This document shows, piece after piece, positions 6,077 to 57,442 of a stretch of DNA of 64,000 nt. The stretch's first letter is position 1. Each line of letters starts with the position of its first letter. The translations under genes were made by a program, and so were the position numbers. The DNA comes from Campylobacterales bacterium (GTDB lineage Bacteria; Campylobacterota; Campylobacteria; Campylobacterales; QNZT01), in NCBI GenBank assembly GCA_027068765.1, contig JAMOMC010000172.1:5123-69122 (forward strand), given 5' to 3'. A model generated the notes under the pieces. That model was not told the DNA's origin. It worked only from the letters and a program-made list of their open reading frames with translations, and made no database searches.

Positions 6077-7000
6077 TTAATGATTTGGAAATTTTAGATC
6101 AAAGCTATAAACAAATCCTATATTTGCATATCCAAATTTTGTATCAAACACATTTTTAGTTTTTTCATTGTATAGATATGGGATTATACCGTTGTATTGA
6201 TTAGTATAATATTTACTGCCAATAAAAATTAAAATTTGTCTCGATAAGGCATAAGAGAGAGTTAGATTAAAAACATTGTTACTACTTTCAATATTTTGCA
6301 CACTTCTGTTAAAAAGTCTAATATACTCATATCCACCCTCTATAAGATAATTTCCTAATTCTACGGTATATTGAAATCCTAAATTTAGGGAAGTTTCATT
6401 TCTGTTAAGAGAGAGTAAATCTAGTTTTGTGTTGATATTTGTATATTTTAATCCAAGATAAAAATCTAAAATACTTGCTCTTATTTTTGAACCAGCCAAA
6501 ACTCTTATATAAAATGAGTTATCGCTCAAATCATTCATATTTGAAATTTCTAAATTTGAGCCTGAAATTTTCAAATCATTTGCCCCATTATGTATAAAAC
6601 CTAAATCTGTTGAAAAAGTATCTATAAATGAGCTTGGATTGTGGTAGATGCCAAGTTTTGTAAAAAAGTGCTGTTTTTTATTTTTTAAACTTTCACTTGC
6701 ATAGTCAAGATTTTGATACTCAAAGTTGTAAAAGAGTGATATATATTCAGAAAAACCATAACCAAGGGTAAAGTTAAGACCATTTAAATCTCCAATGCTT
6801 CCATGTCTTGAAGCACTCCCAACATTATCATCTCTTATATTAAAAATATCAAAATTTTTACTAACTACATTGTAGCTTGCACTAATGTTTGCTTTTTGAA
6901 AAGGAAGTACATATGAGCGAATATTTTGTGATGTGGCTTGTACATCTAAAGCCTTTACAAATGAGGCAAATAGAAACAATATTAGCAAAGTTTTAATCAT
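6077..7000 (-). CDS. Outer-membrane beta-barrel protein, paralog 2
   Basis: I place the start at ATG 7000 because it is preceded by GAGGAG and yields the signal peptide 'MIKTLLILFLFASFVKA'. It shares 'SIGD..GL...LGYG', 'YNFEY', 'LKNKK', 'EGGYEY', 'GIIPYLYN' and 'GYANIGFVYSF' blocks with paralog 1. Confidence 0.6.
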   Translation of the reverse strand: MIKTLLILFLFASFVKALDVQATSQNIRSYVLPFQKANISASYNVVSKNFDIFNIRDDNVGSASRHGSIGDLNGLNFTLGYGFSEYISLFYNFEYQNLDYASESLKNKKQHFFTKLGIYHNPSSFIDTFSTDLGFIHNGANDLKISGSNLEISNMNDLSDNSFYIRVLAGSKIRASILDFYLGLKYTNINTKLDLLSLNRNETSLNLGFQYTVELGNYLIEGGYEYIRLFNRSVQNIESSNNVFNLTLSYALSRQILIFIGSKYYTNQYNGIIPYLYNEKTKNVFDTKFGYANIGFVYSFDLKFPNH

Positions 7001-19038: not shown

Positions 19039-19424
19039 GCTATCTCCTTTTTTAACTCAATTAACTGTGAGTGTAAAGCTACTTTTGTTTTTAACTCAAT
19101 ATCTATGAATGGTTTGATAATATAATCAACCCCTCCAACTTCATATGCTTTTTGTATATCTTCTAAAGAGTCACGCCCTGATAAAAATATAATGACAATA
19201 TCTCTTGTTTGCTTATCTTTTTTTAATATTTCACACATTTCATAGCCATTCATAAAAGGCATCATGATATCTAATAAAACTATCTCAATATTGTGCTCTT
19301 TTACAAGCTTAAGTCCCATGATAGCACTTTTAGCATAAAACATTTGATGCCCGTCATTTTTGAGCATATTCATTGCCATTTGGATATTTTTAGGGGTGTC
19401 ATCTACTATTAGTATCTTGCTCAA
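19035..19424 (-). CDS. Single-domain CheY-like response regulator
   Basis: 'ILIVDDTPKN', 'LLDIMMPFMNG' and 'KPF'. 4-bp overlaps with both neighbours. Confidence 0.85.
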   Translation of the reverse strand: MSKILIVDDTPKNIQMAMNMLKNDGHQMFYAKSAIMGLKLVKEHNIEIVLLDIMMPFMNGYEMCEILKKDKQTRDIVIIFLSGRDSLEDIQKAYEVGGVDYIIKPFIDIELKTKVALHSQLIELKKEIA

Positions 19425-22400
19425 GCTTTATCCTTTTGTAAAATATTTTCTAATTTTGCTATTAGATTTGGAAAAGAGTTCATCATAAAATCTATCCTCT
19501 CTATATCAAAACTTTCACAATTTAGCTTCAACTCTTTTGCATAAGTTAATAGAAGATTGTTAGGATGCAAATTTGCTAAATCTATCAAGTTGGTGGCAAA
19601 CTCTAAAATTAGTGAAAAATCTCCCATATCTTTTATCTTAGTCCATTTTTTAATATAAACTTCTTGAAGTATTTTAACCGTTTTTGGCAAATCTACATAA
19701 GTATTTTCTTCTATAGATGCATCTTTTTTTTGTTTTAATTCATATGTATTATAAGTTAAAAATTTTGTTAATTCCAAAATTAATTCATCATATGATACAG
19801 GTTTTCTAAGATAACCATCAAATTTATACTCTTTAATTTTTTGCATATCTTTTCCCATTACTGAAGCGGTAATTGCAACTACTGGTATATCTTTTAAAAG
19901 AGAGTTTTTTTTGATAATTGATATAGCTTCGTAACCATCCATTATGGGCATTTTTATATCCATGCAGATTAAATCAACTTTGATACTTTTCAATTTCTCT
20001 AAAGCATCTTTCCCATTTTGTGCTTCATAGATTTTTAAGCCATAATTTTTAAGAGCAGATTTTATAAGTTTTCTGTTATCTTTTATATCATCTACAACTA
20101 AAATAGTTGCAGAGTTAAACTCTATACTTTCAGCTATAAATTGTGGTTGTTTTTTTTCATTTTCAATTAAACTTACAGAAATATCTTTAAGATAAACGGT
20201 AAATTTTGAGCCCTCTTTTAGCTTGCTTTGAACCTCTATATCTCCATTCATAAAGTTTAATAGTTTTTTACAAATTGTTAATCCTAATCCTGTACCTCCA
20301 TATTTTTGATTTTGTCCTTTTTGTTGCTCAAATGAGTTAAAAATACTCTTAAGATTTTTTGCATCTATACCTATGCCTGTATCTTCAACAATTAAAGCTA
20401 AATCAATCTTACTCTTTTTCTCATCATCAAATATCTTTTTTACAGATAGTTTAATAACTCCACTATCAGTAAATTTTATAGCATTTCCAATTATATTAAA
20501 TAAAATCTGTCTAATTCTAGCACTATCTAAAAGTAGATATTTAGGAATACTATCATCTATCGCAACTTCAAAATTAAGATTTTTTTGCATAAGTTTTATG
20601 GAAAATATAGACTCCATCTCTAAAACCAATTGCTTGATATTTACACTCTCTAGTATAATTTCTAATTTTCCAGCTTCAATTTTGGATAAATCTAAAATAT
20701 CATTTATAATATCTAAAAGTGCAGATCCTCCTCTTTTTATGGAGCTTAGATAATCTTTTTGTATAGGGTCTGTTATGAGTTTTTCTAAGAGGTTTGAAAA
20801 ACCAATAACAGAATTCATAGGTGTTCTTATCTCATGAGACATATTTGCTAAAAATTCTGATTTTGATAAATTTGCTAATTCTGCTTGTTTTTTGGCTTTT
20901 GATAACTCTTTTTCCATCTTCATTCTTTGAGTTAAGTCAACACCAATTGTAAGAAGAGCATCTTGACCATCATACATAATTGGTAAAATAGATATCATTA
21001 TGTTGTCAATATCTCCATTATAATTTTTTAGTTTTATAATTTTTTCTTTTACAACTCCATCTTTTTTTAAAGTCTCTATAACTTCTATTCTCTCATTTGT
21101 ATCAACATAAAACTCTAAGATATTGTAATTTTCAATATCTTCACTTGAGAGATTATAATCTTTTATAGTTTTTGGATTTGCTAAGAGTATTTTCCCTTCT
21201 ATTGTGGTTACTACAACATATAAAAGTATATTATCTATGAGGGTTCTTATCTGAGTTTCACTCTCTTTTAGTGCTATATTTAGTTTTTTTCTTTTTTTAA
21301 TTTCAGATGCAAGTTTATAATTCCATACAATTATAGCTATCAAGATAAGTAAAAAAACACCAAACAGTTGATATAAAATAGTATAATCAACATTTGTGAC
21401 AAATTCTATTTTTTGCCACCTATTAAGGTTCTCATTATTTTTAATTTCACTCATAGATTTTTCTATGAGTGATCGAAGAAAAGGTTTATCTTCGTGTATA
21501 AAAAGTGTTGACTTCATCTGTATAGAAGTTTTTCCTACAATTTTAAGAGTGTTAAAACCTTGAGCTTTGATTAAATACGAAGCGGCTGGCATAGACAATA
21601 AAATAGCATCATATTTCTCATACACTAAACCACTTAGTGCATCTTTTGGATTTTTTACCTGAATAAATGGTATATCTTTATAGTTTTCAATGAGTTTATG
21701 AGTATATCCATAATCATTTACAATAGCAATTTTTTTATCTTTTATATCTTTTAAATCATCAATAAAACTATTGTCCTCACGCATAATTATAACAATAGGT
21801 ATAGTAGAATAGGGTGTAATTGGTTTGTAGTTTTGTTTTAAAATCATATCGTCAATTTCACCAGAAATTATATCAAGTTGATGTTTTTGAGATAAATCTA
21901 ATGTCTCTTGCCAACTACTTGTAATTTTTGGTTTTATTTTTATACCAATTTTTTTCTCTAACTCTTTTAAATACTCTGCAACTATTCCAATATACTCTCC
22001 ATTTTTATTAAAAGCTTCAAAAGGGAGCCAATTTGGATTTCCTGCAAAAAAGATAGTTGGATTTTTCTCTAACCATCTCTTTTCTGCTTGAGAGAGTGAA
22101 ATTTGTTTAGATATATTTTTAAAATTCTCTTTATAAAAGAAGTCATTATCTATTTTTGGATTTTTTACCAATCCTAATTTGTAGTAAGTTTGTGCAACAT
22201 TTTGATACTTATATCTGTTTATATTACCTAGTTTTTTAAAATTTGGCATAATCATCTGATAAGTGCTTTTTGCTTCAAGTTTTAAAAGTTCTTTATCTGC
22301 TTTTGGTGCATATGTTTTTAAAATTATATCAATTATCTCATCTTGGTTTTCAAGAGCATATTCCCAACCTTTTAGAGTTGCTTTTTTCATTTTAGCAACT

Positions 22401-23068
22401 CTTTTTGGATGAGTGGATAACTCTTTTTGACTTGTAAAAAAATTATCTCCATAAAAATCAATTCCATAACTTTTTGGGTCAATTATATTGACTTTTACAC
22501 CTTTTTTAGCAAGATAAAATGGCTGTGAAGTAGTGTATGCTGAAATAGCATCAACTTTTTTATTGATTAAATCTTCATATGAGCTAAAAGGTACAATGTC
22601 TATATTTTGCAAGCTACCAATTGCATTTAAAAACATAGCATTTATTGGAGTGCCTCCATATCCATCAAAAGCATAAGAGATTTTTTTGCCTATCATTTCG
22701 TATGGTGTTGTAATTTGTGACTCATAAAGCGAGATTAAAACAAGAGGAGATTGTTGAAATATTTGTGAAATTAGTACAACATTTTCACCTTTAAGCCTAT
22801 GAATTGCAAGTGTACTATCGCTTACACCATATTGGGACTCTCCATCTAAAACTTTTTGTATAGGGCTTTTTTGAAAATCTATCTCTTTTAGTGTAACTTC
22901 GAGCCCCTCCTCTTCATAGAAACCTTTATAAATAGCAGCATAGTAGCCTGCAAATTGAAAAGAGTGTTTCCATTTTAATTCAATTGAAACCTTTTGTTTT
23001 ACGCTAATTTTTGCATTTAAAGTGGAGAAAAATAGTAAAAATGTGATGAGAATAGAAATATTTTTCAC
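19421..23068 (-). CDS. Hybrid sensor histidine kinase with two periplasmic solute-binding domains, PAS, HisKA, HATPase and REC
   Basis: Signal/TM segment, an NMT1/SsuA-like SBP ('LKWKHSFQFAGYY') and a type-3 SBP ('FFAGNPNWLPFEAF'), then TM and PAS. H-box 'MSHEIRTPMNSV', N-box 'GNAIKFT', 'DTGIGI', 'GGTGLGLTI'. REC 'VVDDIKDN...MDIKMPIMDG'. The ~130-aa C-terminal helical tail has no obvious HxxKG. Confidence 0.85.
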   Translation of the reverse strand: MKNISILITFLLFFSTLNAKISVKQKVSIELKWKHSFQFAGYYAAIYKGFYEEEGLEVTLKEIDFQKSPIQKVLDGESQYGVSDSTLAIHRLKGENVVLISQIFQQSPLVLISLYESQITTPYEMIGKKISYAFDGYGGTPINAMFLNAIGSLQNIDIVPFSSYEDLINKKVDAISAYTTSQPFYLAKKGVKVNIIDPKSYGIDFYGDNFFTSQKELSTHPKRVAKMKKATLKGWEYALENQDEIIDIILKTYAPKADKELLKLEAKSTYQMIMPNFKKLGNINRYKYQNVAQTYYKLGLVKNPKIDNDFFYKENFKNISKQISLSQAEKRWLEKNPTIFFAGNPNWLPFEAFNKNGEYIGIVAEYLKELEKKIGIKIKPKITSSWQETLDLSQKHQLDIISGEIDDMILKQNYKPITPYSTIPIVIIMREDNSFIDDLKDIKDKKIAIVNDYGYTHKLIENYKDIPFIQVKNPKDALSGLVYEKYDAILLSMPAASYLIKAQGFNTLKIVGKTSIQMKSTLFIHEDKPFLRSLIEKSMSEIKNNENLNRWQKIEFVTNVDYTILYQLFGVFLLILIAIIVWNYKLASEIKKRKKLNIALKESETQIRTLIDNILLYVVVTTIEGKILLANPKTIKDYNLSSEDIENYNILEFYVDTNERIEVIETLKKDGVVKEKIIKLKNYNGDIDNIMISILPIMYDGQDALLTIGVDLTQRMKMEKELSKAKKQAELANLSKSEFLANMSHEIRTPMNSVIGFSNLLEKLITDPIQKDYLSSIKRGGSALLDIINDILDLSKIEAGKLEIILESVNIKQLVLEMESIFSIKLMQKNLNFEVAIDDSIPKYLLLDSARIRQILFNIIGNAIKFTDSGVIKLSVKKIFDDEKKSKIDLALIVEDTGIGIDAKNLKSIFNSFEQQKGQNQKYGGTGLGLTICKKLLNFMNGDIEVQSKLKEGSKFTVYLKDISVSLIENEKKQPQFIAESIEFNSATILVVDDIKDNRKLIKSALKNYGLKIYEAQNGKDALEKLKSIKVDLICMDIKMPIMDGYEAISIIKKNSLLKDIPVVAITASVMGKDMQKIKEYKFDGYLRKPVSYDELILELTKFLTYNTYELKQKKDASIEENTYVDLPKTVKILQEVYIKKWTKIKDMGDFSLILEFATNLIDLANLHPNNLLLTYAKELKLNCESFDIERIDFMMNSFPNLIAKLENILQKDKA

Positions 23069-23103: not shown

Positions 23104-24852
23104 TTAATTTGGTATTGTACTTTTTTGACTAATTAAAGTAGCTGATGGTTCAAAAAAGTAATAGCCTTGATATTCATCTATATCAAACTCTTGTAGTTTT
23201 TCGAAAACCTCTTTTGAGTGGACAAACTCTGCAATTACTTTTATGCCTAACTCATTTGCAGTTTGAGTGATTGCTTTTACCATTGTCTGTATCTGTATAC
23301 TTTTGTCAATGTTTTTTATTAAAGAGCCATCAATCTTTAGATAATCTGGACTCGTTTGTATAATATTTCCAAAGTTTGAAAAACCGCTACCAAAATCATC
23401 AATGGCAATTTTAACTCCATATTTCCTAAATTTTTTGATAAATTTTTGCAATATTTTATAATCTTTTATATCTTCGCTCTCTACAATTTCAAAAATTAGT
23501 CTATCTCCAATATCATGGTTTTCTAATACATTTTCTATTAATGAGACTATACTACTATCAGTAAAATCACTGTATGTAAGGTTGACAGATAAGATACAGT
23601 GATTTTTGATGAGATGTTCAAGAGCTTTTTTTACCATTGTTTTTGATAGATTTGAGTACTGTTTTGTAGCAATTGCAGTATCAAGAAAAAAGTACGGGGA
23701 TACAAGAGTCTCTACCTCATTCTCTACCTCTTTTAATCGCATTAAAGCTTCATGTTTTACAATTTTGCCTTGACAATTTACAATTGGCTGAAAAACTGGG
23801 ATAATATTGTTGTTATCTAAAGCATATTGTATTTTTCTTTTCCAGCTTATTGTATTTTGCATCTTTTTTAAAGTATTCATTGAGGTTTTATAAATTATAT
23901 ATGGTTTTTTATCTGTTTTTGCAAATTTTAATGCAATATCTGCATGAGTTAAAAGATGATCTTTCTCAAATGAAACACCAATTGTTGCATCTATGTAAAT
24001 TTCCTCTTTAAGCTCTTCCATATAAAGTGGTAGATGTATTATAAATTTGCTAAGTCTTGTTATAAAGTTTTTAAATTTATCCTCGTTTTCTTGTTTACTA
24101 CAAATTGCAAACTCATCTCCTGATGTTCTATAGAGTGTATAATTTGCCCCCAAGGTGTGTACTTCTAAAATATTTGCAAACTGTCGTATAGTTACATTAC
24201 CTATATTGGTTCCATATAAATCATTTATAAATTGCAGGCGATCTATATCAATGAGAGCTAACATCTCATACTCATTTTTTTCAATATCTCTACTAAGTGC
24301 TAAACGATTTTTAAGACCTGTTAAGTGGTCGGTGTAAAGCTGCTTTTTTAGCTCATTTGTTCTTTTTTTTATCTCAACTTCTAGATGCTCATTTGATGCG
24401 ACTATTTTGGCAGTGTAAAGTTTTGAGTTTTTTTCATTATTTATATTTTTTGATATTTTATATAGTGCTTTTAGGAGTTGTTTTTCTTGCATAGGTTTTA
24501 GTAAAAAACTATCTATTCCTAAATTTATTAGTTTTAAAAGAGTTGCAGGTTCATCCTGAGCAGATACTACTGAAATATACTGTTTTATATTAATTTGATG
24601 TATTTGTTCAATCATATCTAAGCCATTTAAATTTGGCATGTTTATATCTGTTATAACTATATCAAAATAGCGATTTTTTGTATATAACTCATTTTTGTAA
24701 GCATTTAAACCTTCTTTTCCATCTGTACATAAGGTAACACTTGCAAATAGCATCTCATATAACTCAACACTCTGCTCTATGATTGATGCATCATCTTCAA
24801 CATATAGTAAGTGTAAGTTTTTGGTATAAAAATGTAGTTCTTTAAAGTCCAT
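23104..24852 (-). CDS. REC-GGDEF-EAL c-di-GMP turnover protein
   Basis: REC 'LLYVEDD...TDINMPNLNG'. GGDEF domain with variant 'SGDEF'. EAL domain motifs 'HEALMRL', 'DDFGSGFSN' and 'EYQGYYF'. Confidence 0.85.
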   Translation of the reverse strand: MDFKELHFYTKNLHLLYVEDDASIIEQSVELYEMLFASVTLCTDGKEGLNAYKNELYTKNRYFDIVITDINMPNLNGLDMIEQIHQINIKQYISVVSAQDEPATLLKLINLGIDSFLLKPMQEKQLLKALYKISKNINNEKNSKLYTAKIVASNEHLEVEIKKRTNELKKQLYTDHLTGLKNRLALSRDIEKNEYEMLALIDIDRLQFINDLYGTNIGNVTIRQFANILEVHTLGANYTLYRTSGDEFAICSKQENEDKFKNFITRLSKFIIHLPLYMEELKEEIYIDATIGVSFEKDHLLTHADIALKFAKTDKKPYIIYKTSMNTLKKMQNTISWKRKIQYALDNNNIIPVFQPIVNCQGKIVKHEALMRLKEVENEVETLVSPYFFLDTAIATKQYSNLSKTMVKKALEHLIKNHCILSVNLTYSDFTDSSIVSLIENVLENHDIGDRLIFEIVESEDIKDYKILQKFIKKFRKYGVKIAIDDFGSGFSNFGNIIQTSPDYLKIDGSLIKNIDKSIQIQTMVKAITQTANELGIKVIAEFVHSKEVFEKLQEFDIDEYQGYYFFEPSATLISQKSTIPN

Positions 24853-24981: not shown

Positions 24982-25644
24982 TTAGATTTTAAATTTTTGT
25001 ATCGTAAACTCTCCATCTTTATAACTTAAGTAGTACAATAAATCTTTTTTTACCTCTTCGCCTATGAGGTATCTTATGGCTAGATTTGCTTGTAAAGATG
25101 CTACTTGCATGATGATAGGAGCCGCTATGCCTCCTGGTTTTCTATCTGTGATTTTAAATGCATCAAAACTAGCTTTGTCAAAAAAACATACTTGTCCGTG
25201 AAACTCTTCAACTGAGCCATAAATCCAAGGGGTTTTTGTCTCTTTGGCCCATTCTCCTATAGCTTTTCGTGTTGGAAGATTATCCATAGCATCTATGATG
25301 AGATCTACTTTGTGACCCTCTTTTTTAAACTCATCAAAACTCATAACTTTTGGTATGGTCTTGGTATATGGAGATTTGCTTTGTATTAGTTTTGAGATGC
25401 ATTGAGCTTTTTGCTTATTTTCATCTTCAAGTGTAAAAGCTATCTGCCTGTGTATGTTGTGAAGTGTTACATGGTCAAAATCTATGAGATATATGGTTCC
25501 AATCCCTATTGTCCCAAGTGCAAGAGAGAGTGAACTACCAAGTCCACCACACCCTATAATAGCAATTGTCTTATCTTGTAAACTATCTTGAGCCTCATCT
25601 CCCCAAAGTTGAATTTGTCTTAAAAAATACTCATCTCTTGTCAT
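24982..25644 (-). CDS. ThiF/MoeB/HesA-family E1-like adenylyltransferase
   Basis: 'IAIIGCGGLGS' nucleotide-binding loop, 'DFDHVTLHNIHRQ', and ~220 aa length. Confidence 0.8.
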   Translation of the reverse strand: MTRDEYFLRQIQLWGDEAQDSLQDKTIAIIGCGGLGSSLSLALGTIGIGTIYLIDFDHVTLHNIHRQIAFTLEDENKQKAQCISKLIQSKSPYTKTIPKVMSFDEFKKEGHKVDLIIDAMDNLPTRKAIGEWAKETKTPWIYGSVEEFHGQVCFFDKASFDAFKITDRKPGGIAAPIIMQVASLQANLAIRYLIGEEVKKDLLYYLSYKDGEFTIQKFKI

Positions 25645-25719
25645 GGTTTCTCCTTCGTTTAGTTATATTATCATTTTTATAGTTAATAATTGTAAAAAGT
25701 AAATTTGATATCTATTTAA

Positions 25720-25768
25720 TTTTTGCACATCTTTATGATTAAAAATTAATCATAAAGATGTGCAAAAA
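25720..25768. repeat. Perfect 49-nt palindrome (23-bp arms, 3-nt centre) in a divergent intergenic region
   Basis: I read 'tttttgcacatctttatgattaa-aaa-ttaatcataaagatgtgcaaaaa' directly. The arms are exact reverse complements. Confidence 0.9.
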
Positions 25769-25810
25769 AGATTTATAAAATTATATAATAAGAGAAAAAA
25801 AGATTTAACC

Positions 25811-27391
25811 ATGAAACAATTAACTCCATTAGAGAGTTTTATAAACTATAAAACAGATACAGATAAACAGTGTGGAAATTACCATATAGAGATTGCAGAG
25901 TTAAAAGAGAATGAGCAGTATAGATTTCATTTTGATATGAGTGTCTGTATCGGTTGTCACTGTTGTGAGGTGGCTTGCAATGAGCAAAATGCTAACTCTG
26001 CAGATATAAAATGGCGTCGTGTTGGTGAGATGGAAGCGGGAGTTTTTCCAAATGTAAAGCAACTTTTTAACTCAATGAGCTGTAATCACTGTATAGATCC
26101 TGAGTGTTTAAAAGGCTGTCCTACAAACTCATATATAAAGTTTGAAAATGGCATAGTTTATCACGATGATGATGTTTGCATAGGATGCCAATACTGTACT
26201 TGGAACTGCCCTTATGAAGTCCCTATTTTTAATCCTGATAGAGGTATAGTTACAAAATGTCATATGTGTTACGAAAAGTTAGATGCAAAACAGACTCCAG
26301 CTTGTGTTCAAGCTTGTCCCGCAGGGGCGATAGAGATAGAGATTGTAAATGTTGATAAATGGTTAAAATCAGATATCAAAAAAGAGGGGGTAGCACCACA
26401 TCTTCCAGATATCTCTATCACAAAACCAACTACTAGATATACACTTCCTAAATTTGATGAAGATGTAAAGCCAGTGGATGAGCATATCTTAAAACCAGCA
26501 CACAAAGAGTTACCACTTATCTTCATGACTATCTTTTCACAAATCTCAGTTGGCGGATTTTTGGCTCTATTTTTAGGACATATTTTAAATATTGAATTTA
26601 ATTTAGAGAAGACAAATCTCTGGCTGGTAGTTGTGGTCTTTTTACCAATTGCAGTAGGTCTACCTCTTTCAGCTTTACATCTAGGTCGTCCAATTATGGC
26701 TTTTAGTGCTATGAAAAATATCAAAACTTCTTGGCTATCTCGTGAAGCTTTAGCTCTTGGTTTATATGCTTTTGGTGTTTTTTTGGTAGTTATTTTGTAT
26801 TATTTTGAAATTTTTGGTATTTTGATGACTCTTTTACAAGCTTTAGTTTTGAGTATGGGAGTTTATGGTATTTTTGCTCAATCGATGATATATCGTGTTA
26901 AAGCTAGACCATCTTGGGATAGAGTCTCAACTACAAAGAGATTTTTTGGATCAGGATATGTTGGGTTTTTGCTTGTGGGTTTTGTGATGCTTTTAGATGG
27001 AGCTAATGAGAGTGTTATGGCTATTTTGGTACTGATGTTACTTTTTGGGGGTTACCAAATTTATGCTATTTATAAAGAGGTATACTTTTATAAGTGTCTA
27101 GATGTAAATAGTATAAACTTTTATCAATTAAATAGAACAAAAAAACTTCTCGAAGAGAAATTTAGAAAGTATAAAAATATTAGGCTCACTTCGATAGTGC
27201 TATTTGCTTTAGTATTTCCACTTTTTGCTATAGTTTTTATAGTGAATGAGTCATTTGTGTTTGCTCTATTTTTACTTTTTATCTCAATTGCAGGAGCGAC
27301 TGTAAGCGAACTTTTAGGTCGTTATCTCTTTTTTGTTACGGTTGTACCTTTGGGTTTAGCAGGGAATTTTTTTGCTGGAAATCAGAGATAA
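25811..27391 (+). CDS. Fused DmsB-like 4x[4Fe-4S] ferredoxin + DmsC/YnfH-like membrane anchor
   Basis: Cys clusters 'CIGCHCCEVAC', 'CNHCIDPECLKGCP', 'CIGCQYCTWNCP' and 'CHMC...ACVQACP', followed by ~8 hydrophobic helices. I prefer ATG 25811 because the GTG at 25760 lies inside the palindrome. Confidence 0.75.
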   Translation: MKQLTPLESFINYKTDTDKQCGNYHIEIAELKENEQYRFHFDMSVCIGCHCCEVACNEQNANSADIKWRRVGEMEAGVFPNVKQLFNSMSCNHCIDPECLKGCPTNSYIKFENGIVYHDDDVCIGCQYCTWNCPYEVPIFNPDRGIVTKCHMCYEKLDAKQTPACVQACPAGAIEIEIVNVDKWLKSDIKKEGVAPHLPDISITKPTTRYTLPKFDEDVKPVDEHILKPAHKELPLIFMTIFSQISVGGFLALFLGHILNIEFNLEKTNLWLVVVVFLPIAVGLPLSALHLGRPIMAFSAMKNIKTSWLSREALALGLYAFGVFLVVILYYFEIFGILMTLLQALVLSMGVYGIFAQSMIYRVKARPSWDRVSTTKRFFGSGYVGFLLVGFVMLLDGANESVMAILVLMLLFGGYQIYAIYKEVYFYKCLDVNSINFYQLNRTKKLLEEKFRKYKNIRLTSIVLFALVFPLFAIVFIVNESFVFALFLLFISIAGATVSELLGRYLFFVTVVPLGLAGNFFAGNQR

Positions 27392-34080: not shown

Positions 34081-35169
34081 ATGTTTGGACTAAAAAAGAC
34101 AATACTTTTAGATGAGTACATAAAAGAGATAGAAACTTTAAAAGATGAAAATTCTAAGTTAAAAGATACAATTTATCAACTTCAAAATAGTGTAAATTCA
34201 AATAACATAGATGATAAAGAGAGTGAAGATAATAAAAATGAGAGTGAACTGCTCTCTATATTACTTCATAGTTATGAAGATGGTATAACTTTTTTAAAAA
34301 ATGGAGCAGGTGAAAGCTTAGTAATGCTAAAAGATGTAAATAGCTTAAACACTCAAACAGTTGAGATGGTTTCAAAATCAAAAGATGAAACAGGAGATGT
34401 AATATCATCAGTTGAGAGTATTCAGCAGTATACACAGCAGTTAAAAGATAACTCTCATTCACTAAATGATAGTGTTATATCAATTTCACAGATTATTGAT
34501 TTGATTAAAGATATCTCAGATCAAACTAATTTATTGGCACTAAATGCTGCTATTGAGGCGGCAAGAGCGGGGGAACATGGTAGAGGATTTGCTGTAGTTG
34601 CTGATGAAGTTAGAAAGCTTGCTGAGAGAACACAAAAAGCAACTCAAGAAGTCGAGATAAATATCAGCGGTCTTAAACAAAATGCGAATAATATGATTGA
34701 GATTAGTGATACATTTGGTAATGAATCAGATTCTATTATGGGTATGCTAGATACATTTACAAATAATGTAGACCAAGTTGGTATAAATACTGAAAATATC
34801 ATGAATATGACAGAAAACATAACTAGAGAAGCTGCTATTAGTAATGGTAAAATAGAGCATATTCTTTTAAAATTAGGAGCATATCAAGCAATTTTAAATA
34901 ATAAAAATATTAATATAGATACTTATAGTGATTGTGGTTTTGGAAAATGGGTAAATGAAGCTGTTAAAGGATTTTTGAAAAATTGTAAAAATATTAAAGA
35001 GATTGATAAACATCATAAAAATGTACACGATGGTTTAGAAGATGCACTAAAAAGCCATTTTAAAGAGGATAATTTGAAAAAGAGTGTAGAGATATTAAGA
35101 GATGTTGAAAACTCTAGCAAAGTTGCATTTGATGATTTGATAGAGTCGGTAAAATTAGCACGAAATTAA
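34081..35169 (+). CDS. Soluble methyl-accepting chemotaxis protein with C-terminal CZB (zinc-binding) domain
   Basis: No TM segment. Signalling hairpin '[34 protein letters not shown]'. C-terminal 'CGFGKW...HHKNVHD' is a CZB-type Cys/His pattern. Confidence 0.8.
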
Positions 35170-35182
35170 AATAATTTTTATT

Positions 35183-35215
35183 AGATGAACTTGATAATTG
35201 TTATCAAGTTCATCT
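35183..35215. terminator. Perfect 15-bp stem / 3-nt loop hairpin after the MCP gene
   Basis: 'agatgaacttgataa-ttg-ttatcaagttcatct'. No U-tract follows, so it could instead be an operator for the downstream porin operon. Confidence 0.45.
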
Positions 35216-35290
35216 AAACTTAAGGTCTCTTTTGTTAAGGTTTGGTTTCGATAGTGAATATCAAAATTAAAACTTTCAAAGGAAGATGTT

Positions 35291-36559
35291 ATGAATAAAA
35301 AACTAGGAGTTACATTATCATCTATTTTGTTAACCTCTATACTAAATGCACAGACAGATATAGAGAAACTACAAAATGAGATTAATATACTCAAGAAACA
35401 ATCAGATGTATTAGCAGAAGAGCTACTAGATATATCAACTGGTTCATTTACAAAGATAGATGATTCAAAAGCACACAATGGTTTAGGTGCTGCTGCATCT
35501 AAGGTTTACTACACAAATTCACCACTATCAATTGGTGGTTATGGTGAGATGTATTGGGCAAAAGTTGACGGTGAGCGTTCATATGCAGACTTATATAGGT
35601 TTATTCCATATTTTGGTTATAAATTTTCTGATAATGTTATCTTAAATACAGAGATAGAGTTTGAACACGGAGGCTCTCAAAGTGTGAAACTTGATGGTAG
35701 TGATGAAAGTTCTGTAAGTGGGAAAATTCTTTTAGAGTTTATGTATCTTGATTTTTTAATAAGCAAATCAGTAAATATTCGAGTTGGAAATCTTTTAGTT
35801 CCTATGGGTATCACAAATCTAAGACATGAGCCTACTCTTTTTGCAACCGTACAAAGACCAGCAATTGAAAAACTACTAATCCCAAGCACTTGGCATGAAA
35901 ACGGTATACTTGTTTATGGAGATATATCTAATACTGGAATTGAATATACAACAGGTATCATCAATGCATTAAATATTAACAATACTAACACTGTTGATGG
36001 TAAAGAGAAATGGATAAGAACGGGTCGTTTAGGTTCTGCTTATAATGCACCATTTAATGCAGCATTTGTAGCAAGAGCTGACTATAGAGGCATAAATGGC
36101 TTGCTTGCGGGAGGTTCTGTATATGTAGGTGATGGTTCAAATCAAAAAAATGACATCAAAGGGACAACTATGAGTATATTTGAAGTCCATGCTGTATATA
36201 ACTATAGAGGTTTAAATATAAAAGGACTCTACACACAGTCAAATTTAAATGGAGGCGAGAAAATTTCTGCTAAAGCACCTAAAAAAGGTAGTGGATATTA
36301 TGTGAATACCTCTTATGATGTAGGTACTTTGATAGGTATTGATTTTAAGACATTAGTTTTTGCACAATATGAAAACTACAACACAAGAGAGAAACTAGTA
36401 GATGGAAGTAGCTATAAGGCTACAAATATAATCAACTTTGGTGCTAACTTTTTTCCAACTGACCAGACAGTCTTAAAAGCAGATTATCAGATAAAAGATG
36501 ATAAAAACGAGGATGATAAAGTAAACACTGCATCTTTGTCATTTGGATTTCTTTTTTAA
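35291..36559 (+). CDS. Outer-membrane porin (OprO/P-like)
   Basis: Signal peptide and an N-terminal coiled coil 'DIEKLQNEINILKKQ'. 'IRVGNLLVPMGITNLRHEPTLFATVQRP' resembles the porin O/P 'vGqfk.PfG.e......f.eR' block. C-terminal 'SFGFLF'. Confidence 0.65.
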   Translation: MNKKLGVTLSSILLTSILNAQTDIEKLQNEINILKKQSDVLAEELLDISTGSFTKIDDSKAHNGLGAAASKVYYTNSPLSIGGYGEMYWAKVDGERSYADLYRFIPYFGYKFSDNVILNTEIEFEHGGSQSVKLDGSDESSVSGKILLEFMYLDFLISKSVNIRVGNLLVPMGITNLRHEPTLFATVQRPAIEKLLIPSTWHENGILVYGDISNTGIEYTTGIINALNINNTNTVDGKEKWIRTGRLGSAYNAPFNAAFVARADYRGINGLLAGGSVYVGDGSNQKNDIKGTTMSIFEVHAVYNYRGLNIKGLYTQSNLNGGEKISAKAPKKGSGYYVNTSYDVGTLIGIDFKTLVFAQYENYNTREKLVDGSSYKATNIINFGANFFPTDQTVLKADYQIKDDKNEDDKVNTASLSFGFLF

Positions 36560-56368: not shown

Positions 56369-57442
56369 ATGATATATGAGGATTATTATATATTTACTCC
56401 AGGACCTGTTAAGATGTCTAAAGAGATTTTAGAGATAGGGGCGAAGCAGACTCCGTATTTTAGAAATAGTGAGTTTTCTGATGTTACTTTTTATTGTGAA
56501 AATTATCTTTTAGAGATGCTGAATGCTCCAAAAAATAGTAGAGTTATATTTTTGACCGCATCTGGGACTGCTGGTATGGAGTCTGTGGTTATGAATTTAC
56601 TAGATGTAGATGATAATGCACTTGTTGTTAATGGCGGAGGTTTTGGTGCTAGATTTGTGGATATTTGTAATTTACACGATATTAATCATTTTAATTTAAA
56701 AGTTAAAGATACAAATCTTAGTGATATTCAAAAGATTGCTCCACAAGAAAAATTTAATTCACTTATAGTTAATGCTCATGAGACGAGTGTTGGACATATT
56801 TATGATTTAGAGGCTATTGGTAAATATTGTAAAAAAAATAATCTTTTATATATTGTAGATGCAATTAGTATGTTTGTAACAGACTCTTTAGATATGCAAA
56901 AAGATAGTATAGATGCAGTAATTGTTAGTAGTCAAAAAGCGTTGGCTCTTCCTCCTGGGCTTACTATGGTTGTGTTATCTCCTAAAGCATTAGAAAAAGT
57001 AAAAGATGTAAAAAGTTTATATTTTAATTTTAAAGATTATCTTAGAGATGGACAAAGAGGTCAAACACCTTATACTCCAGCAGTTACCATAATGCTTCAG
57101 CTTGAAGCTAGGTTAAAACAGATTCAAAAAGATGGAGGAGTTGAAAAAAGTATCAAAAAAGCTAAAAATTTAGCTGAATATTTTCGTCAAAAAATAAAGC
57201 CTTTACCACTTGTAGCCTTTTCCAAGTTTATGCCAAATGCGATGACGACCCTTGCACCAACAGATGGTAAAAGTGCTTTTAAAATAGTAGAAGATTTGGA
57301 GAAAAATTATAAGGTTATGGTCTGTCCAAATGGAGGAGAGTTAAAAGATAAAATTTTTAGAATCTCACATATGGGTGATATGGATGAGGCTTATATAGAT
57401 ATTTTAATAAATGCACTTTTTGACTATTATGAAAACAATTGA
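56369..57442 (+). CDS. Class V (AGXT/PhnW-like) PLP aminotransferase
   Basis: 'IFTPGPVKMS', 'DAISMF' and the PLP-lysine context 'VSSQKALALPPGL'. The start abuts the previous stop. Confidence 0.8.
   Translation: MIYEDYYIFTPGPVKMSKEILEIGAKQTPYFRNSEFSDVTFYCENYLLEMLNAPKNSRVIFLTASGTAGMESVVMNLLDVDDNALVVNGGGFGARFVDICNLHDINHFNLKVKDTNLSDIQKIAPQEKFNSLIVNAHETSVGHIYDLEAIGKYCKKNNLLYIVDAISMFVTDSLDMQKDSIDAVIVSSQKALALPPGLTMVVLSPKALEKVKDVKSLYFNFKDYLRDGQRGQTPYTPAVTIMLQLEARLKQIQKDGGVEKSIKKAKNLAEYFRQKIKPLPLVAFSKFMPNAMTTLAPTDGKSAFKIVEDLEKNYKVMVCPNGGELKDKIFRISHMGDMDEAYIDILINALFDYYENN

Follow-up and report, generated by a model that had tools for sequence, protein, structure and literature searches.

A perfect 49-bp palindrome upstream of a DmsB-DmsC fusion gene in Campylobacterales encloses a conserved dyad that is probably a nitrogen-assimilation operator

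The 64,000-nt stretch of DNA considered here (the window; GenBank assembly GCA_027068765.1, contig JAMOMC010000172.1) comes from a member of the Campylobacterales and carries, in an intergenic region from which two genes diverge, a perfect 49-bp palindrome. To its right lies a gene for a fusion of a DmsB-type 4Fe-4S protein with a DmsC-type membrane anchor (dmsBC), and to its left, on the opposite strand, a gene of the ThiF/MoeB family (the thiF-like gene); the coordinates are collected in Table 1. The palindrome is 43 nt from the dmsBC start codon, ATG 25811, and 76 nt from that of the thiF-like gene, ATG 25644, both distances being as given in the initial annotation, which had been made from the sequence alone. 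That annotation had also pointed out an alternative start codon, GTG 25760, which indeed falls within the right arm of the palindrome and would yield a protein of 543 amino acids (aa). Since homologues of the fusion protein are 524-530 aa long and their N-termini can be aligned from ATG 25811, the latter (526 aa) is taken as the true start, in agreement with the earlier preference. The closest match to the fusion protein in a genome shares 76% protein identity with it, and the closest protein outside its own cluster in a large database 81%.

Table 1. Features of the dmsBC/thiF-like intergenic region and the flanking genes (positions in the window)
Feature	Position	Strand	Remark
Perfect palindrome	25720..25768		49 bp; 23-nt arms, AAA centre
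Conserved dyad core TGATTAAAAATTAATCA, read as operator	25736..25752		centre 25744; orthologue motif
Left outer arm TTTTTGCACATCTTTA	25720..25735		not conserved in orthologues
Right outer arm	25753..25768		not conserved in orthologues
-10 box TATAAT of predicted dmsBC promoter	25784..25789	+	starts 40 nt after operator centre; invariant in 8 closest orthologues
DmsB-type 4Fe-4S and DmsC-type membrane-anchor fusion gene	25811..27391	+	526 aa; putative regulated gene
Divergent ThiF/MoeB-family gene	24982..25644	-	220 aa
Best sigma-70-like promoter match for thiF-like gene, TTTACA-18-GATAAT	25667..25696	-	consensus match only

The palindrome reads tttttgcacatctttatgattaa-aaa-ttaatcataaagatgtgcaaaaa (in upper case, TTTTTGCACATCTTTATGATTAA-AAA-TTAATCATAAAGATGTGCAAAAA), and an inverted-repeat search bore out its description as two 23-nt arms (25720-25742 and 25746-25768) that are 100% complementary and separated by 3 nt. 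It is the longest perfect inverted repeat of the window. At the base composition of the window (30% G+C, with a probability of 0.288 that two bases are complementary), the chance expectation is 2.6e-7 perfect repeats with 23-nt arms and loops of 0-10 nt, and in 30 shuffles of the window the longest perfect arm reached only 9-13 nt. When single-stranded, the palindrome region folds at -29.7 kcal/mol as RNA (z = -7.3), and a 59-nt stretch folds at -22.7 kcal/mol as DNA (z = -8.9). The palindrome is single-copy in the 64 kb, the sole other match to the 23-nt arm at up to 3 mismatches being an intragenic one at 56790 with 3 mismatches. An intrinsic terminator was considered and rejected: a terminator scan returned 0 sites, the stem is A/T-rich, no U-tract or T-run follows on either strand (as had been noticed at the outset), and this intergenic region is where both flanking genes begin rather than end.

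The part of the palindrome that is conserved is its centre. Comparison of the 150-200 nt preceding the gene in 80 orthologous genome loci, together with two obtained by exact-protein look-up, revealed a 17-bp dyad, TG-nn-TA-(A/T)5-TA-nn-CA, in the 200 nt that precede dmsBC in about 60 of 79 orthologous regions, with its centre usually 65-73 nt ahead of the start codon. The motif-bearing orthologues belong to Sulfurimonas, Sulfurovum, Nitratifractor, Hydrogenimonas, Arcobacteraceae, and other Campylobacterales. In the window, the corresponding core (25736-25752) is perfectly symmetric about 25744, and the 21-mer that encloses it (25734-25754) reaches 19.4 bits with the matrix derived from the orthologues; the arms contain no second match, the best other score in 25690-25800 being 5.2 bits. 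Across the orthologous regions, the TG, TA, TA, and CA of the motif are nearly invariant, position 5 being T in 85 of 90 sites, whereas position 3 is variable (A, C, T, and G in 47, 18, 15, and 10 sites). When the eight closest orthologues are aligned, the invariant columns are confined to the core (TG, A, T, and CA), the -10 box (ATATAAT), the start codon ATG, and portions of an A-rich leader. L003, which is the closest locus (L numbers denote the loci fetched for comparison), has the site AGTGGTTAA-ATT-TTAATCACT with unrelated, asymmetric flanks. At those mirrored positions of the motif that vary, complementary bases occur in 38% and 61% of cases, where column frequencies predict 30% and 55%; these positions show no covariation, and each half-site is read as sequence rather than as one side of a paired stem.

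Dyad symmetry, conservation between orthologues whose flanks have diverged, a fixed position relative to a promoter, and a regulon (the last two are described below) are all found here, as in operators of transcription factors. The proposal of the initial annotation that the element could be an operator for a dimeric regulator is thus backed in kind by comparative evidence, but the half-site that it named, TTGCACAT...ATGTGCAA, is wrong: the outer half-site TTGCACAT is not present in any orthologous region, and the conserved part is the inner TGATTAA-N3-TTAATCA. Related genomes keep this inner core and not the outer arms; likewise, the arm occurs once in the window, but the inner motif recurs before many genes of the regulon.

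The position of the motif relative to the promoter is rigid. Over 91 sites examined in both directions, a hexamer with at most one mismatch to TATAAT starts exactly 40 nt from the motif centre in 57 of 182 site-directions; any other single offset collects about 3-4 such hexamers. In 12 sites the -10 box stands at 40 nt on both sides, so that one operator faces two divergent genes (e.g., narK and dmsBC in L003); the window has a canonical -10 box only on the dmsBC side. Transcription of dmsBC would start near 25796, about 7 nt past the -10 box, which would centre the operator near -52, and since the -10 box lies downstream of the palindrome, the latter is probably not transcribed with the gene. 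No -35 consensus was detected between site and -10 box across the regulon sites, and this interval shows a ~10-bp periodic A/T enrichment, which is typical for promoters of Campylobacterota. A sigma-54 GG-N10-GC element is also absent between site and gene in the window and in the closest orthologues. The right outer arm contains TGCAAA (25761-25766), which lies 17 nt ahead of the -10 box, and L003 has AGCAAA at the same offset. On the other side, 100 nt separate the operator centre from the thiF-like ATG, no -10-like box stands at the canonical 40-nt offset, and the sequence does not indicate control of that gene by the palindrome site.

Gene neighbours, counted in 81 related loci after clustering, connect the fusion gene to nitrate assimilation. 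Directly downstream of dmsBC, 57 of the 81 loci encode a NasA-like cytoplasmic molybdoenzyme, and other recurrent neighbours are a NirA-like nitrite reductase (26 loci), a NarK-like transporter (26), a COX1-like protein (19, in some with a cupredoxin-like protein), and a PP2C-kinase fusion (16). By this gene context, the dmsBC fusion belongs to an assimilatory nitrate-reduction cluster in Campylobacterota, and the same context suggests a role as a quinol-linked module through which electrons enter the assimilatory reduction of nitrate and nitrite. Among the loci retrieved by protein homology, further motif sites precede narK, nirA, a siroheme synthase gene, and the cupredoxin/COX1-like pair. 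Sites are often paired, 33-34 bp apart (L050 185/218, L051 810/844, L060 211/245, L072 131/165, L076 2884/2918, and L080 2866/2900); in divergent narK-dmsBC regions each gene thereby has its own site at the canonical distance, and elsewhere both sites precede one gene, such as the siroheme synthase gene in L051.

A scan of metagenome contigs with the exact pattern ATGRTTAAAWWTTAAYCAT, which is noisy, returned at least 120 loci, in which the distance from motif centre to ATG is typically 75-79 nt. Among the matches listed, recurrent downstream genes are amtB (at least 8 open reading frame fragments in at least 7 loci), narK (at least 4), glnA (at least 3), the PII gene (at least 2), a gene for an NrtA-like binding protein (at least 2), ureD (at least 2), and dmsBC (at least 1). 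Because amtB, glnA, PII, and urease genes are included, the gene set is read as a general nitrogen-assimilation regulon that follows nitrogen status rather than nitric oxide (NO), molybdate, or sulfur. A sulfur-assimilation regulon or a ModE-type molybdate regulon, at which the ThiF/MoeB neighbour and the NIR_SIR genes might hint, was rejected on the strength of these members and of narK, and also because the thiF linkage is seen in the window genome only.

Several associated loci are recorded as observations in their own right. The PP2C phosphatase-Ser/Thr kinase fusion (~540 aa; L003 1-1566, L010-L014, L019, L032, L036, and others) is usually encoded between narK and dmsBC, and in L014 and L019 a motif site stands ahead of its gene. 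The COX1-like protein (~541 aa) and the small cupredoxin-like protein, which has no Pfam match, are encoded as a pair in L060 (533-2756) and in L005, L006, L059, L072, L138, and L141, several of these pairs being preceded by a motif site. A 1310-aa gene product in L206 (82-4014) fuses NirA-like (NIR_SIR) and NasA-like (molybdopterin) domains and is encoded beside a regulator-amtB-PII cluster of the kind described below. In three near-identical AT-rich contigs (L186, L193, and L200), ispDF diverges from ntrB-ntrC-ntrY, a gene order that we take to be alphaproteobacterial, and the 19-mer pattern occurs 65 nt before ntrB (L200 5777-5795); this could be chance, or an NtrC-type helix-turn-helix (HTH) reading such sites in AT-rich genomes.

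A candidate for the cognate regulator emerged from the metagenome locus L143, where an operon of two genes precedes amtB-glnK and the motif occupies the interval. Of these two genes, the first encodes a 244-aa protein with a C-terminal Fis-type HTH (...LGINRNTLRKKIHEH) and the second a 233-aa protein with a weak match to PAS. Four Sulfurovum-like loci share the order HTH_8 protein (244 aa), 233-aa protein, amtB, and PII; three of the four add a second amtB-PII pair, and one has a gene for a NirA-NasA fusion beside it. Homologues of the 244-aa protein number more than 1000, and the best 120 of them are all 244-246 aa long, the named ones being from Sulfurovum; at 50% clustering the family comprises about 100 clusters with E <= 1e-10, of ~240-270 aa apart from short fragments. 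Over its last 70 residues, the 244-aa protein matches Fis and the DNA-binding domain of NtrC (Pfam HTH_8, 23.1 bits with a cut-off of 22; NCBIfam ntrC C-terminus, E = 6e-9; Fis-like entries of the PDB, E = 4e-6). The middle region gives only a weak, partial match to the AAA+ domain of sigma-54 activators (PspF, E = 2e-4; a 'faint' Sigma54_activat record), and the sequence contains neither GAFTGA nor a receiver domain, for which a protein of ~245 aa leaves no room. The protein therefore has the Fis-type HTH_8 domain of the NtrC family and lacks its functional sigma-54 AAA+ domain and its receiver or sensor.

The link between this family and the motif rests on scores from a matrix built from dmsBC promoters only. 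Three 10.7-kb regulator loci contain exactly three sites above 17 bits each, one at the regulator's own gene and one upstream of each of amtB1 and amtB2; the own-gene site lies ~24 nt before the regulator ATG, and the amtB1 site again stands 40 nt from a -10 box, here an extended one. A homologue with 37% identity has a 19.8-bit site 27 nt before its own ATG, and those with 32% and 49% identity have sites of 20.4 and 15.6 bits at or near their own genes. In a 60% G+C organism, a 41%-identical homologue whose partner gene is kept has a weak A/T-rich site, CGTGCTTAAAAAGTGACCATT, of 11.6 bits upstream of the operon (L208 1067-1087, L209 2979-2999), and the regulator family thus reaches past the AT-rich Campylobacterota. 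Given a background of roughly one chance site per 60 kb, the linkage is far beyond chance, and because of it and of the sites at the factor's own gene we assign the motif, with moderate confidence, to this ~245-aa NtrC-derived family. The regulator is presumably present in the source organism as well. Another protein, with a DUF3972 domain and encoded near glnA, was considered as the regulator and dropped, no motif site being seen at the DUF3972 gene; its neighbourhood (PHP-family protein, U32 peptidase, purE, and glyQ) presumably reflects conserved housekeeping synteny.

The outer arms require a separate account, since their perfect symmetry is, among the sites compared, specific to the lineage of the window. 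At the 14 positions beyond the 21-mer, the 91 sites have a mean of 4.97 symmetric positions, against 4.64 in a control with the register shifted by one step; only the window reaches 14 of 14, and five sites have at least 9, against 1.5 expected, which is a mild excess. Mirror-image divergent promoters were rejected as the cause of outer symmetry, because the 12 two-sided sites have 5.25 symmetric positions of 14, against 4.85 in the remaining sites (p = 0.25). When the arms are compared with the flanks of L003, the left is identical at 17 of 23 positions and the right at 13 of 23, and the closer resemblance of the left is consistent with one arm having been copied over the other. Template switching in quasi-palindromes is an established class of mutation that perfects a repeat in one step (PMC7202029, PMC3820800, PMC8604942), and an event of this kind would be the most plausible origin of the outer arms. 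As in the known cases, an imperfect inverted repeat (L003) is set against a perfect one (the window) that a one-step conversion would produce; unlike them, since they come from reporter genes and close genomes, there is here one distant comparison, and the change is long, at ~15 nt per arm. Operators may be read as natural seeds for such palindrome-extending events.

Extended palindromes were also observed at a few other sites. The longest is a 47-bp perfect palindrome in L143 (3955-4001; 22-nt arms AAAGAGAGAGGTATATGATTAA...), centred on the motif, with outer arms unrelated to those of the window, which follows directly after the stop codon of the gene for the regulator's partner and lies 79 nt before amtB. 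Shorter ones occur in the narK-dmsBC intergenic region of L053 (~2889-2921; 15-nt arms), upstream of amtB1 in L205 (~6420-6450; 14-nt arms), and in L207 (12-nt arms).

Taken together, these results make it probable that a dimeric nitrogen-assimilation factor, most likely the 245-aa NtrC-derived protein, has its operator in the inner 17-21 bp of the palindrome, and that the outer arms are a mutational by-product. The factor would control genes for nitrate, nitrite, ammonium, glutamine synthetase, PII, and urease in Campylobacterota, and at dmsBC it would bind the predicted site centred ~52 nt before the predicted transcription start. From that position, it most likely activates transcription under nitrogen limitation, although the sign of regulation, like binding itself and activation from -52, is inferred. 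The candidate combines a degenerate AAA+ region and a Fis-type HTH, without a receiver, and its gene shares an operon with that of the ~233-aa weak-PAS partner. The outer 15 bp of each arm lie outside the conserved site, and one arm could have been copied onto the other without a function of its own being needed. A wider synthesis is possible, though we stop just short of favouring it as a whole: a global nitrogen regulon under a receiver-less, sigma-54-independent ~245-aa remnant of NtrC, controlled by its partner in a NifL-NifA-like logic rather than by phosphorylation, with rigid activation from -52 at sigma-70 promoters. In this synthesis the DmsBC fusion would pass electrons to the cytoplasmic assimilatory nitrate and nitrite reductases, and long perfect palindromes among the operators would be the visible footprint of template-switch mutation at binding sites.

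Some observations weigh against the operator account and its parts. The structure model of the regulator is only moderate (mean predicted local distance difference test, pLDDT, 67.7), its fold matches to NtrX, FlrC, NtrC1, and Fis have low TM-scores, and both the promoter and the placement of the site at -52 are predicted. The regulator gene was searched for in the 64-kb window and not found, nor were nasA, nirA, narK, or amtB-type partners, so that dmsBC stands there without its usual neighbours, and the site could be a relic. Long perfect extensions with mutually unrelated outer sequences are present at L143, L053, and L205 also, and such recurrence could mean that the structure is selected and not neutral. 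The template-switch origin, in turn, is drawn from a single comparison, in which the orthologous protein shares 81% identity.

Comparison with known systems helps to place both the motif and the candidate. The box of NtrC, TGCACC(A/T)4TGGTGCA (PMC4987338, PMC8743547), resembles the motif in being a 17-bp dyad with TG/CA ends and an A/T centre, and the two are associated with similar genes (amtB-glnK, glnA, and nitrogen scavenging genes), the candidate itself having an NtrC/Fis-type HTH and sites at its own gene. However, positions 3-6 of the campylobacterotal motif are nnTA and not CACC, so that the GCACC/GGTGC core is lacking; the motif stands at a fixed, predicted -52 by a sigma-70-type -10 box, whereas NtrC sites lie at least 100 bp upstream of a sigma-54 promoter; and the candidate has no receiver, a degenerate AAA+ region, and no GAFTGA. 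NtrX is a member of the NtrC family without the sigma-54 contact motif, and it binds the promoter of its own operon. The Brucella abortus protein (PDB 5m7n) is the best fold match of the candidate, but NtrX has a receiver and a kinase, NtrY, in place of which the ~245-aa candidate has its 233-aa weak-PAS partner. The co-transcription of a weak-PAS protein with a receiver-less DNA-binding protein of the NtrC family, next to PII genes, recalls NifL-NifA by analogy only; NifA is a functional sigma-54 activator, and the interaction within the candidate pair is entirely hypothetical.

At promoters activated by TnrA, the box lies ~49-51 bp upstream of the transcription start, close to the -52 predicted here. 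The TnrA/GlnR box of Bacillus, TGTNANATTTTNTNACA (PMC5569456), is moreover a 17-bp inverted repeat with an A/T centre and TG/CA ends and serves a global nitrogen regulon. In contrast to its T3 and A5, the motif has a variable position 3 and T5/A6, and TnrA and GlnR are MerR-type proteins of Firmicutes, none of which was found near the sites. The dyads bound by CRP, FNR, and NtcA (TGTGA-N6-TCACA, GTA-N8-TAC, TTGAT-N4-ATCAA) are of even length, whereas the motif has an odd length of 17 bp and is centred on a base.

These parallels bear on the possibility that the core is the operator of some other regulator, be it a full-length NtrC, a GlnR/TnrA-like MerR protein, an Rrf2/NsrR-type sensor of nitrite or NO, or a ModE-type protein. 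Such a reading would accord with the absence of the candidate's gene from the window, with a regulon whose nitrite reductase and COX1-like/cupredoxin pair are possibly NO-related, with the shared 17-bp inverted-repeat form of TnrA boxes (PMC5569456), and with the pattern 65 nt before ntrB in the AT-rich ntrB-ntrC-ntrY locus represented by three near-identical contigs. It is nevertheless unlikely, as the HTH_8 family is the sole DNA-binding protein repeatedly linked to the motif, through own-gene sites in the four Sulfurovum-like loci and at homologues with 49%, 37%, and 32% identity; amtB, glnA, PII, and urease indicate general nitrogen status; neither the T3/A5 of TnrA nor the even-length geometry of CRP and NtcA is seen; and the surroundings of the sites examined showed no MerR, Rrf2, or ModE gene. 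A different proposal retains the whole 49-bp palindrome as a functional structure, with its arms under selection for cruciform extrusion or for an extended contact with an NtrC-like oligomer. The very stable hairpin of the single-stranded DNA, the extended palindromes with unrelated outer sequences at L143, L053, L205, and L207, the mild excess of sites in which 9 or more of the 14 outer positions are symmetric, and the identity of the palindrome in two further assemblies of the same species (L001 and L002) speak for it. However, the differences between those assemblies and the window amount to no more than 16 in 6663 positions and 1 in 2679 (0.04-0.24%), so that identity over 49 nt is uninformative on selection; outer symmetry is at chance over the 91 sites, and the regulon at large therefore does not need the arms; outer sequences vary from case to case, which rules out base-specific contacts; and the palindromes of L143 and L205-L207 follow directly after an upstream stop codon, where a 3' hairpin is possible, a role inapplicable in the window. 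We consider selection on the whole structure quite unlikely.

The two further ideas of the initial annotation, a hairpin in the 5' untranslated region and a cruciform or recombination site, fared worse, although the 49-bp palindrome could still be extruded in supercoiled DNA. An RNA element that blocks translation of the dmsBC or thiF-like mRNA, or stabilises it, would draw on the marked fold of the region and on the position of GTG 25760 within the palindrome, but it is very unlikely: the invariant -10 box lies downstream, fixed at 40 nt from the palindrome centre; the best promoter match of the thiF-like gene is likewise downstream of the palindrome on its own strand; bases and not pairing are conserved; homologue lengths favour ATG 25811; and the Rfam matches, to miRNA-like families and generic hairpin families such as RNA-OUT, are all below gathering scores. 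As for a dispersed repeat, the end of a mobile element, or a site of site-specific recombination, the left side was indeed rearranged in the lineage of the window, the narK gene that occupies this position in L003 having been replaced by the thiF-like gene. Homology to L003 nevertheless extends to ~40 nt left of the operator centre, and the breakpoint is thus not at the palindrome. The window holds a single copy and no flanking transposase or recombinase gene, a scan of viral contigs yielded no exact match to the arm, which among the fetched loci recurs only in L001 and L002, and the core is a promoter-associated motif found in many genera, strictly so, and not a repeat dispersed without regard to promoters; this origin is therefore extremely unlikely. 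An operator of a nitrogen-assimilation factor, with outer arms added by mutation, remains the reading that we prefer.

Two other elements of the window deserve mention. A second perfect inverted repeat (35181-35217), with 17-nt arms TTAGATGAACTTGATAA/TTATCAAGTTCATCTAA and a 3-nt centre, lies 12 nt past the stop codon of a gene that ends at 35169 and ahead of one that starts at 35291; no T-run follows it, and it may form a hairpin that acts like a terminator or stabilises mRNA. Downstream of the thiF-like gene, a 1215-aa hybrid histidine kinase is encoded at 19421-23068, alongside a further gene at 23104-24852. The N-terminal ~590 aa of the kinase are 29-31% identical to sensors encoded near narK or glnA in L141 and L120. 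This N-terminal region reads, on sequence, as a double periplasmic-binding-protein domain. The L141 sensor is a GGDEF-EAL protein by its domains, and in L141 and L174 the sensor gene begins just past a motif site; the N-terminal family may belong to nitrate- or nitrogen-linked signalling.

In bacteria, the master regulators of nitrogen metabolism include NtrC, NtcA, TnrA/GlnR, GlnR, and AmtR. Literature searches, within a searchable literature that is incomplete, found no known nitrogen regulator or motif of Campylobacterota, and the motif and regulator have probably not been described before. From one palindrome, the analysis arrives at a conserved operator with rigid promoter geometry, a coherent regulon, and a specific candidate family of regulators, which concern the vent and sediment Campylobacterota, including Sulfurimonas, Sulfurovum, Arcobacteraceae, and their relatives. 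The outer arms, which carry less weight, would be a clean natural case of a binding site grown into a long perfect palindrome. If the proposed regulation is true, a new architecture would join the short list of master nitrogen regulators, the motif could be used to annotate nitrogen-responsive genes in metagenomes, and the widespread orphan 'DmsBC-like' fusion protein would gain a physiological role.

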